Below, one piece after another: positions 18,482-55,153 of a stretch of 62,023 bases of DNA. The translations under genes were made by a program, and so were the position numbers. Origin of the DNA: a virus. The first letter of the stretch is position 1; each line of letters opens with the position of its first letter. The notes beneath the pieces were generated by a model that was not told where the DNA came from, did not search any database, and saw only the letters and a list, made by a program, of their open reading frames with translations. The stretch lies in the IMG/VR virus record IMGVR_UViG_3300001687_001193; one strand, given 5' to 3'.

Positions 18482-18666
18482 TGCCGGAGATTTTCTTAGT
18501 AATCATGGTGCTTGGCATTTTAATTATAGGAATTGGCCTTCTTGGCGCACGTTTTGATGCTACAGAGTCTGCTGTATGGGTCTTTGGAAGTATAATGACG
18601 GGAGTTAGTTGTCTAGGTTACATTGGATATTATATTCAAAAATGGATAGCAGGTTTGCATGTCTGA
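18481..18666 (+). CDS. small membrane protein
   Basis: 61 aa with two hydrophobic segments; ATGA overlap with the upstream gene. Confidence 0.4.
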   Translation: MPEIFLVIMVLGILIIGIGLLGARFDATESAVWVFGSIMTGVSCLGYIGYYIQKWIAGLHV

Positions 18667-18961
18667 GAAAAAGAAGCTCATTAGACAAGAATTTAGAGAC
18701 ATGGTGTTCTCTAGAGACGATTTTAAATGCAGGATATGTAAAAAGGGCGGAGTCGACGTATTAGATGCGCATCATATTACTGGCAGGAATTTCTTCCCCA
18801 ACGGCGGATATGTAGCCGAAAACGGCATCACTCTTTGCCCAAACTGTCATTATAAAGCAGAATATGGTATATATGGTATTAATTTTCTTTACAAAACAAT
18901 AGAGTCTTCATTAAGTAAGGCTATAGAGGCCGATCTTAGAAATGAGGCTAAAAATGAATAA
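18659..18961 (+). CDS. HNH endonuclease
   Basis: CRIC...DAHHITGRN...NGITLCPNCH is a canonical HNH/His-Me zinc-finger nuclease. Confidence 0.7.
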   Translation: MSEKKKLIRQEFRDMVFSRDDFKCRICKKGGVDVLDAHHITGRNFFPNGGYVAENGITLCPNCHYKAEYGIYGINFLYKTIESSLSKAIEADLRNEAKNE

Positions 18962-19286: not shown

Positions 19287-19448
19287 ACATTTTGGTCAAA
19301 GGAATTGCGCCCAGCGAGGAAGTGAAGAAGGAAAGGTCGCAGTCTGAGTGGTTTACAACCGAGGATGAGGACAAATCTAAAAGAGTATTCGGAGGCCGGA
19401 ATTAAGCTAGCTCAGGGGATGGAAGCGGGAAATAAAATAGACACCTGA

Positions 19449-19519
19449 TCGGGCATAGCTCAATGGTAGAGTAGCAGGCTCTGACCCTGTTTATCTAGGT
19501 TCAAATCCTAGTGCCCGAG
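19449..19519 (+). tRNA. tRNA-Gln(CTG)
   Basis: Acceptor TCGGGCA/TGCCCGA, D GCTC/GAGT, anticodon stem GCAGG/CCTGT, loop CTCTGAC, T-arm CTAGG-TTCAAAT-CCTAG. Confidence 0.6.
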
Positions 19520-19626
19520 CGATTCATAATGGTTATTTATGGACCGGCATGTACCAAGGGATGGCGACCTGGTTTTGCAATCCGGGTGTGTCGAGAATTT
19601 TTAAGAAACAAGGAATCAGATAATTA

Positions 19627-20097
19627 ATGCAGTTCGACAACGAAACAGAGTTGATAATTTGGCTTGCAGGGCTGCTAGAGGGAGAAGGGACTTTTATCGC
19701 AGCAACAAGTAAATATACAGCATGTCTGTCATTGAATATGACCGACCACGATATCATTCATTATGTTGCACAATTATGGGACGTTTCCATCTCAAGGCCA
19801 AGAAAGCAAAAAAATCACCACAGGCAATCATACAGATGTATGATTAGGGGTGGTAGAGCAATCAGATGGATGAAGGCCATCAGGAAATATATGGGTGTCC
19901 GTAGAAAAAAGCAGATAGACCGCGCCATCGTGTCACACCGGCCTAAAGGACGAGATCAAAAAATTACGAGGGCACAAGCCGGTGAGATCCTTAGAAGGTA
20001 TATTAATGGAGAGACAGCAATTGAACTTGCAAAGGAATTCGGAATATCTAAATGGATGGTATATGCCATTAAGAAAGGACGCAGGACGACGGGGTGA
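19627..20097 (+). CDS. LAGLIDADG homing endonuclease (single-motif type) with C-terminal HTH
   Basis: IWLAGLLEGEGTF is a canonical LAGLIDADG motif; C-terminal ETAIELAKEFGISKWMV helix-turn-helix. Confidence 0.75.
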   Translation: MQFDNETELIIWLAGLLEGEGTFIAATSKYTACLSLNMTDHDIIHYVAQLWDVSISRPRKQKNHHRQSYRCMIRGGRAIRWMKAIRKYMGVRRKKQIDRAIVSHRPKGRDQKITRAQAGEILRRYINGETAIELAKEFGISKWMVYAIKKGRRTTG

Positions 20098-20159
20098 GTG
20101 CCGGGGCACAGCTGACTTTTGCACGGTCGGCCCGCCGAGTTCAACTCTCGGTCGCTCCA
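20091..20159 (+). other. tRNA-like 3' element (T-arm + acceptor) starting at the HEG stop codon
   Basis: T-arm CCGAG-TTCAACT-CTCGG; 3' acceptor TCGCTCC pairs with GGGGTGA (2 GU); no convincing D or anticodon arms. Confidence 0.3.
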
Positions 20160-20231
20160 CAGATGATGACTTAGACTTATTAAGCGGTGGCTTTCTGCAG
20201 GTTATAGAAGAAAAATTAGATTAGATAATAA

Positions 20232-20309
20232 GGGCCATTAGCTCAGCCTGGAAGTAGCGCTACGGTGACATCGTAGGTCTTGTCGCTGGTTCAAATCCAG
20301 CATGGCCCA
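20232..20309 (+). tRNA. tRNA-Val(GAC) (probable; 8-nt variable loop)
   Basis: Acceptor GGGCCAT/ATGGCCC, anticodon stem CTACG/CGTAG, loop GTGACAT, T-arm GCTGG-TTCAAAT-CCAGC. Confidence 0.5.
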
Positions 20310-20601
20310 CACGAGGTGGAAAATGACAGACAAAACCAGAAAAATAGTGGACATAGATGACCTTAAAAGGATGACTTACAAGAATTACGAACCGTTTTTC
20401 ATCGTCCTCCCAACTGAGAGGGTTATAGTTAGTTCAAAAGAAATCCGCTGGTCTGGAAGAAAATATTTCTACGTTACACACCTCGTAGACGGCTCTAAGG
20501 AAAAACTTACTATTGAAGAGCTGAAAGAATCATATATTGGTAAAGCTATAAAGGCTGGGTGTCTATATTGGGAAGACACAGATCCAAGTTGTTTTATATA
20601 A
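20302..20601 (+). CDS. hypothetical protein
   Basis: 99-aa ORF; GAGGTGG RBS. Confidence 0.4.
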   Translation: MAHTRWKMTDKTRKIVDIDDLKRMTYKNYEPFFIVLPTERVIVSSKEIRWSGRKYFYVTHLVDGSKEKLTIEELKESYIGKAIKAGCLYWEDTDPSCFI

Positions 20602-29725: not shown

Positions 29726-29890
29726 CAGACTCCCGGCCAGGAGTTTAGACGACTGCTAGGAATATTTATTACTAACTCTTACAATCTGGTAGATGCCCCT
29801 CCCAAGGGACAGGTGCGAACGGCAGAATTGATCACCTGCTTATGAGCACGAAGTCAGATCGGTTGTCGTTTTTATGGCTGGGCAGATTAT

Positions 29891-29963
29891 GGGGCTGTAG
29901 CTCAACTGGGAGAGCGCGGGCTTTGCAAGCCTGAGGTCGTCGGTTCGACTCCGACCAGCTCCA
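29891..29963 (+). tRNA. tRNA-Ala(TGC)
   Basis: Acceptor GGGGCTG/CAGCTCC with G3:U70, anticodon loop TTTGCAA, T-arm GTCGG-TTCGACT-CCGAC. Confidence 0.65.
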
Positions 29964-29966
29964 TAT

Positions 29967-54847: not shown

Positions 54848-55092
54848 ACCTAAAAGAATTGAAATATGTAATAGATTCTGCGCTAGACAAATGTCCAGGA
54901 GCAGCACAATGGGATATTATTGTATCACGAGATGGAACTATGAGGGAAGAACTCTTTGAGGTAGATGGAGTAGAAAGCTGTGTATATGAACCAGATCCTA
55001 CTTTAATAGGCAATTATTTTAGGGTAAGAATTGCAGAAAGCGAAGAAAAAGAAAACGCGCTGTGTTTTTATGTTTTGCCAAGCTCCCGCTAG
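54844..55092 (+). CDS. hypothetical protein
   Basis: 82-aa ORF; ATGA overlap. Confidence 0.35.
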   Translation: MNLKELKYVIDSALDKCPGAAQWDIIVSRDGTMREELFEVDGVESCVYEPDPTLIGNYFRVRIAESEEKENALCFYVLPSSR

Positions 55093-55153
55093 TGGATTTC
55101 TAGACTCGGGACTCCTAATCCTGATGTTCCCGGTTCGATTCCGGGCGGGAGTT
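55082..55153 (+). tRNA. tRNA-Arg(CCT) (probable)
   Basis: Acceptor GCTCCCG/CGGGAGT (1 GU), anticodon stem CGGGA/TCCTG (1 GU), loop CTCCTAA, T-arm CCCGG-TTCGATT-CCGGG. Confidence 0.45.

Follow-up and report, generated by a model that had tools for sequence, protein, structure and literature searches.

A free-standing LAGLIDADG endonuclease gene predicted to end inside an intact, non-canonical tRNA-Ala gene of a viral tRNA array

Our analysis of IMG/VR virus record IMGVR_UViG_3300001687_001193, a 62,023-nucleotide (nt) stretch of viral DNA here referred to as the window, indicates that one locus within its transfer RNA (tRNA) genes is very probably a conserved cassette in which a free-standing endonuclease gene overlaps an intact, non-canonical tRNA gene. 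The first component is a homing-endonuclease open reading frame (ORF) of 156 amino acids (aa) at positions 19627 to 20097 of the + strand, recognized by fold, profile and motif evidence. The second is a complete 70-nt tRNA-Ala(UGC) without an encoded CCA (20091 to 20160, + strand), recognized by ARAGORN, by its minimum-free-energy fold and by covariation. In the sequence the two genes share the 7 nt GGGGTGA (20091 to 20097, + strand), which form positions 1 to 7 of the tRNA, its 5′ acceptor strand, and which in the ORF complete a Thr codon with its final base and then supply a Gly codon and the TGA stop (20095 to 20097). The initial annotation had placed a free-standing LAGLIDADG homing-endonuclease gene between tRNA genes, which is borne out by motif, fold, profiles and ARAGORN, and had located its TGA stop inside a GGGGTGA helix pairing with TCGCTCC after a perfect T arm, which agrees with both the sequence and the minimum-free-energy fold. 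The same annotation, however, took the RNA element for a tRNA 3′ fragment consisting of T arm and acceptor stem, and this description did not hold.

Rather than a fragment, the 70 nt form a contiguous cloverleaf, with a mini D hairpin and an anticodon arm lying between the two acceptor strands. The 7-bp acceptor stem pairs GGGGTGA (20091 to 20097) with TCGCTCC (20152 to 20158) and continues without an 8/9 linker into the mini D hairpin GTGC-CGGG-GCAC (20098 to 20109), which has a 4-bp stem and a CGGG loop. It is followed by a linker of 2 nt (20110 to 20111), an anticodon arm (20112 to 20130) with U33, the anticodon UGC (20120 to 20122) and A37, a variable region of 4 nt (20131 to 20134), the perfect T arm CCGAG-TTCAACT-CTCGG (20135 to 20151) and the discriminator A73 (20159), all on the + strand. 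ARAGORN reported 20091 to 20160 as a whole tRNA-Ala(tgc) with its anticodon at position 30, the cloverleaf is also the minimum-free-energy fold of this interval, and our own covariance model scored the window copy at 93.9 bits. Compared with a canonical tRNA, the element has the 7-bp acceptor stem, the 5-bp T stem with a 7-nt T-psi-C loop, and the 7-nt anticodon loop with U33 and a purine at position 37; it lacks the two-nt 8/9 linker, a D arm with a 7- to 11-nt loop, and a score of 29 bits, the gathering threshold of the Rfam tRNA model (RF00005). Two other readings of the hairpin were tried and rejected: a terminator, since there is no T tract, a scan found no terminator on the + strand and the helix covaries within the cloverleaf, and an attP-like tRNA 3′ remnant of an integrating element, since no integrase turned up and the 70 nt make up an entire tRNA.

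The same architecture was found in arrays where no endonuclease gene adjoins the tRNA. A sequence pattern search identified two copies in GC-rich (guanine-plus-cytosine-rich) metagenomic arrays, L009, where the tRNA lies 3 nt after a tRNA-Ala(GGC), and L010, with no homologous ORF ahead of either. An architecture-only pattern, GGG-N8-CGGG-...-YTNGCA-...-TTCRAYT, was run on IMG/VR and returned eight loci with GC contents from 27% to 70%, all eight of them true members according to our covariance model (60 to 93 bits); none of the eight had a tblastn match to the endonuclease, and seven were situated in arrays of 10 to 35 tRNAs. Earlier IMG/VR searches with protein patterns and three sequence patterns had given no matches, and the DNA of the compact tRNA had no match in GenBank phages. 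The unlinked UGC copies therefore number ten (L009, L010 and L030 to L037), reside in arrays of 2 to 35 tRNAs and are separated from neighbouring tRNAs by 3 to 7 nt. Two further candidates were discarded: the single genome_contigs match (L020) was a chance match within a major facilitator superfamily transporter gene with no tRNA, and an apparently D-armless copy in L007 was an artefact of a contig that begins inside the tRNA.

We aligned 16 copies from 15 loci (GC 27 to 70%) and found that 96.9% of the paired cells were indeed paired, compared with 37 to 49% when the 3′ partners were slid by 1 to 3 columns as a control. Both-sided changes occurred in 16 of the 22 pairs and compensatory changes in all four helices, and the four D-stem pairs all covary while being 100% paired. 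Across the 16 copies the CGGG D loop, the T loop TTCRACT, Y32, U33 and A37 are conserved; an extra anticodon-stem pair, C22-G40, is invariant, and the adjacent pair 23-39 is standard in only 9 of the copies. Furthermore, an isoacceptor of the same architecture, tRNA-Ala(CGC), is present in L008 (2397 to 2466), with the D arm CCAU-CGGG-AUGG, in which all D-stem pairs are replaced, and with G3:U70; this tRNA, which also occurs in L012 (1 to 49), lies just upstream of a canonical tRNA-Ala(GGC) and is not called by ARAGORN. Encoding of CCA follows the habit of each genome, being absent from all 24 tRNAs scored in the window and present in 30/30 in L009 and 6/6 in L010. Collectively, these sequence data argue that the compact tRNA-Ala is neither a fragment, nor a decaying pseudogene, nor a product of insertion; since the compact D arm is present in the ten unlinked UGC copies, insertion of the endonuclease gene neither created nor broke the tRNA.

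These results bear directly on the proposal of a tRNA gene disrupted by the endonuclease gene, or of a tRNA intron harbouring it, with only the 3′ part of the tRNA left. The stop codon does fall within the tRNA acceptor strand, tRNA-like relics occur near the 3′ ends of homologues (Mycobacterium phage Astraea, L027 2955 to 3002, and a T-arm-like hairpin in Streptomyces phage Sollertia), and another tRNA of the window (5295 to 5430) bears an insert in its anticodon loop. Against invasion, the cloverleaf is contiguous and complete, and the ten unlinked UGC copies show the same compact D arm in tight arrays. As for an intron, the group I core that had been suspected was not found: Rfam group I and group II intron families gave no match at E ≤ 10 in 19350 to 20400, ARAGORN with introns of up to 3 kb and lowered thresholds found no split tRNA, and no conserved candidate for a 5′ exon was present upstream of the ORF (fold z = −0.27; spacer compared between loci). 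Moreover, the 5′ acceptor strand adjoins the rest of the tRNA and is not found upstream of the ORF. Judged from the unlinked copies and the covariation, we consider both versions of this proposal refuted at the locus, their residual probability being negligible.

The overlap recurs in the same register in other loci. The tRNA starts 7 nt before the end of the ORF in the window as well as in L001 to L005, L008, L011 and L012, whose linked homologues share 55 to 64% aa identity with the window protein (P0003 in L001 to L005, P0004 in L008, P0005 in L011 and P0006 in L012). We treated the linked copies as three lineages, namely the window, L001, and the group L008/L011/L012. The lineages have different upstream and downstream neighbours, the GC content of the endonuclease ORF tracks that of each host genome, and between lineages the synonymous sites are saturated, with the tRNA still 80 to 90% identical. 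A stop codon (TGA or TAG) occupies tRNA positions 5 to 7 in 5/5 linked copies from the three lineages versus one of the ten unlinked UGC copies (p ~0.014 in a Fisher calculation by lineage, 3/3 versus 1/10), and in the linked copies changes in the 3′ strand compensate for the stop codon at these positions.

The ORF carries IWLAGLLEGEGTF and begins 106 nt after a tRNA-Gln(CUG); the initial annotation had the gene in the right position but put this distance at 107 nt. In an AlphaFold model (predicted local distance difference test score, 91), the protein comprises a single LAGLIDADG core (aa 1 to 105) with the motif WLAGLLEGEG and a putative catalytic residue E20, and a C-terminal three-helix helix-turn-helix (HTH) bundle (aa 115 to 149). 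The predicted fold agrees with the alpha-beta-beta-alpha-beta-beta-alpha LAGLIDADG core, and residues L13 to E20 of the motif are invariant in 28 homologues. The best Foldseek matches in the PDB were I-CreI, I-CvuI and I-MsoI (probability 1.0), with a template-modelling score of only ~0.5 because of the extra HTH, and a profile of the homologue family matched chains of I-HjeMI and I-AniI (E ~5e-6). PHROGs gave clear family matches, and the Pfam families HTH_28 and HTH_7 matched the C terminus at sub-threshold scores. The ratio of nonsynonymous to synonymous substitution rates (dN/dS), which could be computed only inside the L008/L011/L012 group because dS is saturated between the three lineages, was 0.04 to 0.10 for close homologues, indicating that the endonuclease homologues are under purifying selection. 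The predicted protein is thus probably an active free-standing LAGLIDADG-HTH endonuclease kept under selection, and the presence of one LAGLIDADG motif per chain implies that the enzyme is homodimeric and that its target is pseudo-palindromic.

Some LAGLIDADG proteins are RNA maturases, and the protein might accordingly act on RNA, as a maturase-like or tRNA-binding factor aiding the folding or processing of the compact tRNA. The bI3 maturase and I-AniI are indeed among the fold and profile matches, and the gene is tightly linked to one unusual tRNA. However, the catalytic acidic residue is kept, ten UGC compact copies exist without the protein, and homologues adjoin unrelated tRNAs or none, which makes a role on RNA highly improbable, if slightly less so than the disrupted tRNA discussed above.

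Presence and absence of the cassette were examined in relatives. Two loci, L025 and L026, are syntenic with the window at ~70 to 75% nucleotide identity and contain the orthologous tRNA-Gln(CUG) and tRNA-Val(GAC), and the slot between them holds four unrelated small ORFs; the endonuclease gene and the compact tRNA are both missing. The canonical tRNA-Gln(CUG) upstream of the cassette (19449 to 19520, + strand; ARAGORN, and 67.9 bits with the Rfam tRNA model) is orthologous to L025 4684 to 4758, and homology stops at its 3′ end, to be picked up again only in the last ~25 nt of the spacer (20161 to 20231, + strand) ahead of tRNA-Val(GAC) (20232 to 20310, + strand; ARAGORN and Rfam), the ortholog of L025 5923 to 5995. 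A comparison with endonuclease-free relatives, which the initial annotation had proposed, therefore had a mixed outcome: the nearest syntenic relative lacks the endonuclease gene as well as a tRNA at this position, and the other relatives compared that possess the endonuclease gene all have the tRNA too. The compact tRNA of L009 and of L036 comes straight after tRNA-Ala(GGC); the two tRNAs are also present in L008 and L012, where they are 0.9 to 1.1 kb apart, with a divergent small ORF and the endonuclease gene in between. The direct junctions in L009 and L036 hence both look like an empty site.

We propose the following model, in which the endonuclease gene and the intact compact tRNA-Ala(UGC) would constitute a two-gene cassette within the tRNA array of a huge phage. 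The endonuclease gene would have landed in the spacer of a few nt immediately 5′ of the compact tRNA, its stop falling at tRNA positions 5 to 7. The enzyme would cut arrays without its own gene, at tRNA genes or right next to them, in the way that T4 SegB acts on the T-psi-C motif, and double-strand-break repair would copy the endonuclease gene along with the tRNA that it overlaps, both thereby being inherited as one unit. On balance, we favour such cutting and co-copying, by analogy with known homing systems, if with some reserve. The tRNA itself would be charged by alanyl-tRNA synthetase (AlaRS) and would decode GCN codons. The established AlaRS determinants are G3:U70 and A73, and both are present in 16/16 copies, from which charging through these determinants and decoding of GCN codons appear likely, a little more so than homing. 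Decoding by such a tRNA is plausible because the Escherichia coli translation machinery accepts a tRNA without a D arm (PMC11551756). Finally, both genes may be on one transcript, in which case an RNase P cut at G1 of the tRNA (20091) would remove the last codons of the ORF along with its stop. Since the cut would strip the stop codon, tRNA maturation and translation of the full-length endonuclease from one RNA would be mutually exclusive, resulting in low endonuclease expression. This coupling by RNase P is speculative, and we regard it as a tentative addition to the model.

Several observations weigh against this model. On the side of the tRNA, the Rfam tRNA model gave no match to the window copy at E ≤ 10 in a 1-kb search and accepted 0/7 of the compact copies scanned (the window copy and six in other loci). 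In addition, the window already has a canonical tRNA-Ala(UGC) at 29890 to 29964, which makes the compact copy redundant in the window, where it could be non-functional; no other tRNA-Ala(UGC) was found by ARAGORN in the stretches fetched for L001, L008, L009, L012 and L036. Both the rejection by Rfam and the canonical copy would also suit an alternative in which the 70-nt element, instead of decoding, serves the endonuclease mRNA as a tRNA-like structure at its 3′ end, a signal for processing, stability or 3′-end formation, of the kind known from mascRNA for MALAT1 and from the tRNA-like structures of plant viruses. The position fixed at the ORF end in three lineages speaks for this alternative as well, as does the tRNA-like relic of Astraea, which has no anticodon arm and also overlaps the stop codon of a homologue. 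Nevertheless, the ten UGC copies that lie 3 to 7 nt from neighbour tRNAs have no adjoining endonuclease gene, the anticodon loop (Y32, U33, UGC, A37), G3:U70 and A73 are conserved, a CGC isoacceptor exists, and CCA is encoded exactly where the other tRNAs of a genome encode it. A 3′ element of this kind is hence improbable, and a decoding tRNA is the reading that we retain.

Other points concern the enzyme and the overlap. The Pfam family LAGLIDADG_3 matched the protein with 18.8 bits, below the gathering score of 22.5, more distant homologues are located between ordinary phage protein genes, and the claim of homing rests on family membership and presence/absence polymorphism. The closest homologue of the window protein, P0002, is not fused to a compact tRNA, which shows that the overlap is dispensable for the enzyme; its gene in L006 is preceded at 18 nt by a canonical-type tRNA-Ala(UGC) and followed at 6 nt by a tRNA-Ser. 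In a neighbour-joining tree without support values, the unfused P0002 falls within the fused clade, so that, tentatively, the fusion was probably ancestral to the clade and lost once. The sole unlinked UGC copy with a stop codon at positions 5 to 7 is that of L037, and it reads GGGGTGA, which demonstrates that the tRNA can already contain this heptamer with no endonuclease gene beside it. The overlap could therefore be a neutral by-product of insertion into a spacer of 3 to 6 nt. As for RNase P coupling and cotranscription, a scan of the locus on the + strand revealed neither a consensus promoter nor a terminator.

Taken further, these points lead to an explanation in which adjacency and overlap have no function and reflect a chance insertion into a very short spacer, with an enzyme that may no longer be mobile, through decay or domestication. 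Array spacers are only 1 to 7 nt long, the heptamer pre-exists in L037, P0002 works without the overlap, and in Astraea a frame running through a whole tRNA-His gene suggests that overlaps arise readily; once formed, the overlap would persist, as no deletion could leave both the ORF and the tRNA intact. On the other hand, purifying selection on the enzyme is strong (dN/dS 0.04 to 0.10) with E20 invariant, stop codons at positions 5 to 7 are enriched in linked copies and accompanied by compensating changes in the 3′ strand, and the cassette occupies different array positions and is missing from the syntenic relative. A functionless overlap is thus unlikely, albeit the most serious of the alternatives to the two-gene cassette. 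The broadest version of our model, in which the compact-D-arm tRNA-Ala (UGC, CGC) is functional, constitutes a new class for bacterial-type translation, is widespread in viral arrays and missed by tRNA annotation with covariance models, and is interlocked in one clade, through RNase P, with an endonuclease of inverse output that homes jointly with it, is possible and, in its entirety, doubtful.

Two pairs of tRNA duplicates were observed in L006, the locus of the unfused homologue. Copies of tRNA-Asn(GTT) (2061 to 2135 and 2832 to 2906) flank an RNA ligase gene, and copies of tRNA-Ser(TGA) (3484 to 3569 and 5027 to 5112) flank an ORF of 415 aa. The layout of these duplicates suggests that gene insertions into tRNA arrays were accompanied by tRNA duplication.

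The cassette is surrounded by at least 24 tRNA genes called by ARAGORN in the window, all of them on the + strand. An identical copy of the window's endonuclease protein is on record in a contig of 460,921 bp, and the source hence looks like a huge phage; in a search for DNA similarity to GenBank phages, only the tRNA-Gln gave a match. The spacer 5′ of the endonuclease ORF (19521 to 19626, + strand; fold z = −0.27) contains AAGGA ~12 nt ahead of the ATG and showed no conservation when compared with L001, L008 or L006. A hairpin with a TTTTGCA loop (~19568 to 19595) within this spacer resembles an anticodon arm and was tried as a 5′ half or duplicated arm; with the same z value (−0.27) and no conservation, it is probably due to chance.

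Further observations were made in and beside these arrays. An HNH-type endonuclease ORF lies in or beside the tRNA array of the window (18659 to 18961, + strand), and others are similarly placed in L009 (8587 to 9498), L010 (36 to 830, − strand) and L008 (1636 to 2172); in L009 and L010 the HNH-type ORF comes directly after the compact tRNA-Ala. ARAGORN and the Rfam model disagreed in both directions within the window, as exemplified by 8108 to 8182 (51.9 bits) and 55083 to 55152 (30 bits), which are tRNAs by the Rfam model and not by ARAGORN. The tRNA at 5295 to 5430 (+ strand; Rfam 54.5 bits over 136 nt), detected by ARAGORN in intron mode only, has an insert of ~59 to 61 nt in its anticodon loop (~5333 to 5391) that folds on itself into an acceptor-like stem with D-like and T-like hairpins and no anticodon arm, which makes it a tRNA-like 'intron'. 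In L006, RtcB and RNA ligase genes adjoin the tRNAs, which raises the question of whether RNase P/Z and phage RtcB or RNA ligase might excise the 5333 to 5391 insert and rejoin the exons. Lastly, L025 contains an odd tRNA-like gene (4203 to 4275; Rfam 36 bits over a partial model match), the 5′ half of which is 96% identical over 27 nt to the canonical tRNA-Ala(UGC) of the window (29889 to 29915) and the anticodon arm of which is different.

Mini D arms (4-bp stem, 3- to 5-nt loop, 0 to 1 nt past the acceptor) were not restricted to tRNA-Ala and were also seen in tRNA-Trp(CCA), tRNA-Met/Ile(CAU) and tRNA-Val(UAC) of viral arrays, namely in L009 (6048 to 6115 and 7182 to 7245), L030 (1973 to 2040 and 4103 to 4171), L032 (4349 to 4418 and 4732 to 4799), L034 (2690 to 2759), L036 (13225 to 13293), L037 (3371 to 3439), L027 (468 to 538) and the window (2084 to 2167). 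The annotated tRNA-Trp of Mycobacterium phage Astraea (L027) has such an arm. The architecture is therefore a feature of these viral arrays and is not unique to the locus.

The endonuclease belongs to a wider family, with homologues detected by tblastn in 138 GenBank phage records. In Bixzunavirus, Streptomyces phage Sollertia, Myxococcus phage Mx1 and actinobacterial-type chromosomes, the homologue is situated 0 to 54 nt after a tRNA or transfer-messenger RNA (tmRNA) gene. The Bixzunavirus homologue, for example that of Astraea, is inside a tRNA array, its motif starting 2 nt after tRNA-His, and a canonical tRNA-Ala(UGC) is found 187 nt downstream of it in Astraea. The homologue of Sollertia lies 54 nt after tRNA-Asp, that of Mx1 45 nt after the tmRNA gene, and those of actinobacterial-type chromosomal contigs ~30 nt after tRNA-Gln(UUG). 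Cultured Bixzunavirus, Streptomyces and Myxococcus phages thus carry such homologues within their tRNA arrays, which makes the general arrangement a known one.

Several of these genomes showed peculiarities of their own. In Astraea (L027, NC_021349.1), the frame is open from 2390 through the whole tRNA-His gene (2418 to 2491), and the annotated start at 2537 is past the LAGLIDADG motif, which leaves the deposited protein without its catalytic motif. The acceptor/T-arm-like relic of the same genome (2955 to 3002; GTGACCG...GGGTTCGAGTCCC...CGGTCACCCA) overlaps the stop codon, with a fold that is not strongly supported. In Sollertia (L028, ~1950 to 2060), the T-arm-like hairpin CACGG-TTCGAAT-CCGTG is located ~80 nt past the stop and shows long-range pairing to the ORF end; no tRNA was called there, and two copies of tRNA-Asp(GTC) flank a small ORF just upstream. 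In Mx1 (L029, OR576727.2, 1082 to 1965), the homologue is annotated as 'HNH endonuclease', and the coding sequence of a 'Hef-like endonuclease' covers part of the tmRNA gene.

The locus corrects an annotation trap, as what looked like a tRNA fragment beside a mobile gene turns out to be a complete, conserved and oddly shaped tRNA. Because tRNA finding with Infernal and Rfam misses the compact tRNA, the tRNA repertoires of phages may be systematically under-counted. The family also supplies natural tRNAs with a reduced D arm that are presumably compatible with bacterial AlaRS, EF-Tu and ribosomes, which bears on the engineering of tRNAs and on the suggestion that phages use their tRNAs to escape host defences aimed at tRNA. 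The overlap further provides a simple, testable model of how a homing gene may be kept linked to, and perhaps regulated by, its cargo tRNA; if the RNase P interlock were true, the output of a selfish enzyme would be inversely tied to that of a useful tRNA, and both would home as a unit. Neither the conserved overlap at the stop codon nor the family of compact tRNA-Ala seems to have been described before, in that the literature searched contained no earlier account of a phage tRNA-Ala with a short D arm or of a tRNA overlapped by a stop codon, which is not proof of novelty.

Endonuclease genes are known companions of phage tRNAs. HNH endonuclease genes accompany tRNA arrays (PMC8421152, PMC6582537), and T4 SegB, a free-standing GIY-YIG homing endonuclease encoded in the T4 tRNA cluster, recognizes the T-psi-C motif and carries tRNA genes along (PMC2330249). 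Like segB, the gene studied here is free-standing among phage tRNA genes and its presence is polymorphic between relatives. Its product, unlike the GIY-YIG enzyme SegB, has a LAGLIDADG fold with an HTH, so that the system is a SegB analogue and not a member of the SegB group; it would extend the SegB paradigm to LAGLIDADG enzymes of huge phages and actinophages. We know of no report of a SegB ORF ending inside a tRNA gene. The proteins of Bixzunavirus (gp158-type), Sollertia (gp128) and Mx1 are homologous (31 to 42% identity, same motif and C-terminal HTH) and, in the large phages, their genes lie like that of the window within tRNA arrays, immediately behind a tRNA or tmRNA gene; in GenBank they are annotated as 'LAGLIDADG endonuclease' or, in several cases, as 'hypothetical protein' or 'HNH endonuclease'. 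In contrast to the window gene, however, they have no functional-looking tRNA overlapping the stop codon, and the downstream tRNA-Ala of Astraea is canonical. I-CreI, I-CvuI and I-MsoI share one LAGLIDADG motif per chain with the window enzyme at only 9 to 15% identity, but their coding sequences reside in group I introns of rRNA genes and they lack a C-terminal HTH.

As for the tRNA, the closest counterparts are the compact-core tRNAs represented by M. alvus tRNA-Pyl and the mammalian mitochondrial tRNA-Ser(UCN), which have 0 to 1 nt between acceptor and D stem, a D loop of 4 to 5 nt, a 6-bp anticodon stem and a variable loop of 3 nt (PMC7609411). The compact tRNA-Ala resembles both in its 0- to 1-nt gap between acceptor and D stem, its D loop of 4 to 5 nt, its extra anticodon-stem pair and its short variable region, and, like mitochondrial tRNA-Ser(UCN), it keeps the GG of the D loop and the T-psi-C of the T loop. 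It differs from both in its alanine identity, its anticodons UGC and CGC, its variable region of 4 instead of 3 nt, its sixth anticodon-stem pair, which is a standard one in only 9 of 16 copies, its 2-nt linker after the D stem and its occurrence in tRNA arrays of bacterial viruses. In animal mitochondrial tRNA punctuation and in MALAT1-mascRNA, an RNase P cut at the 5′ end of a tRNA or tRNA-like structure sets the 3′ end of the upstream RNA; the cut proposed for the window would act at the same place, but it would remove a stop codon rather than create one.

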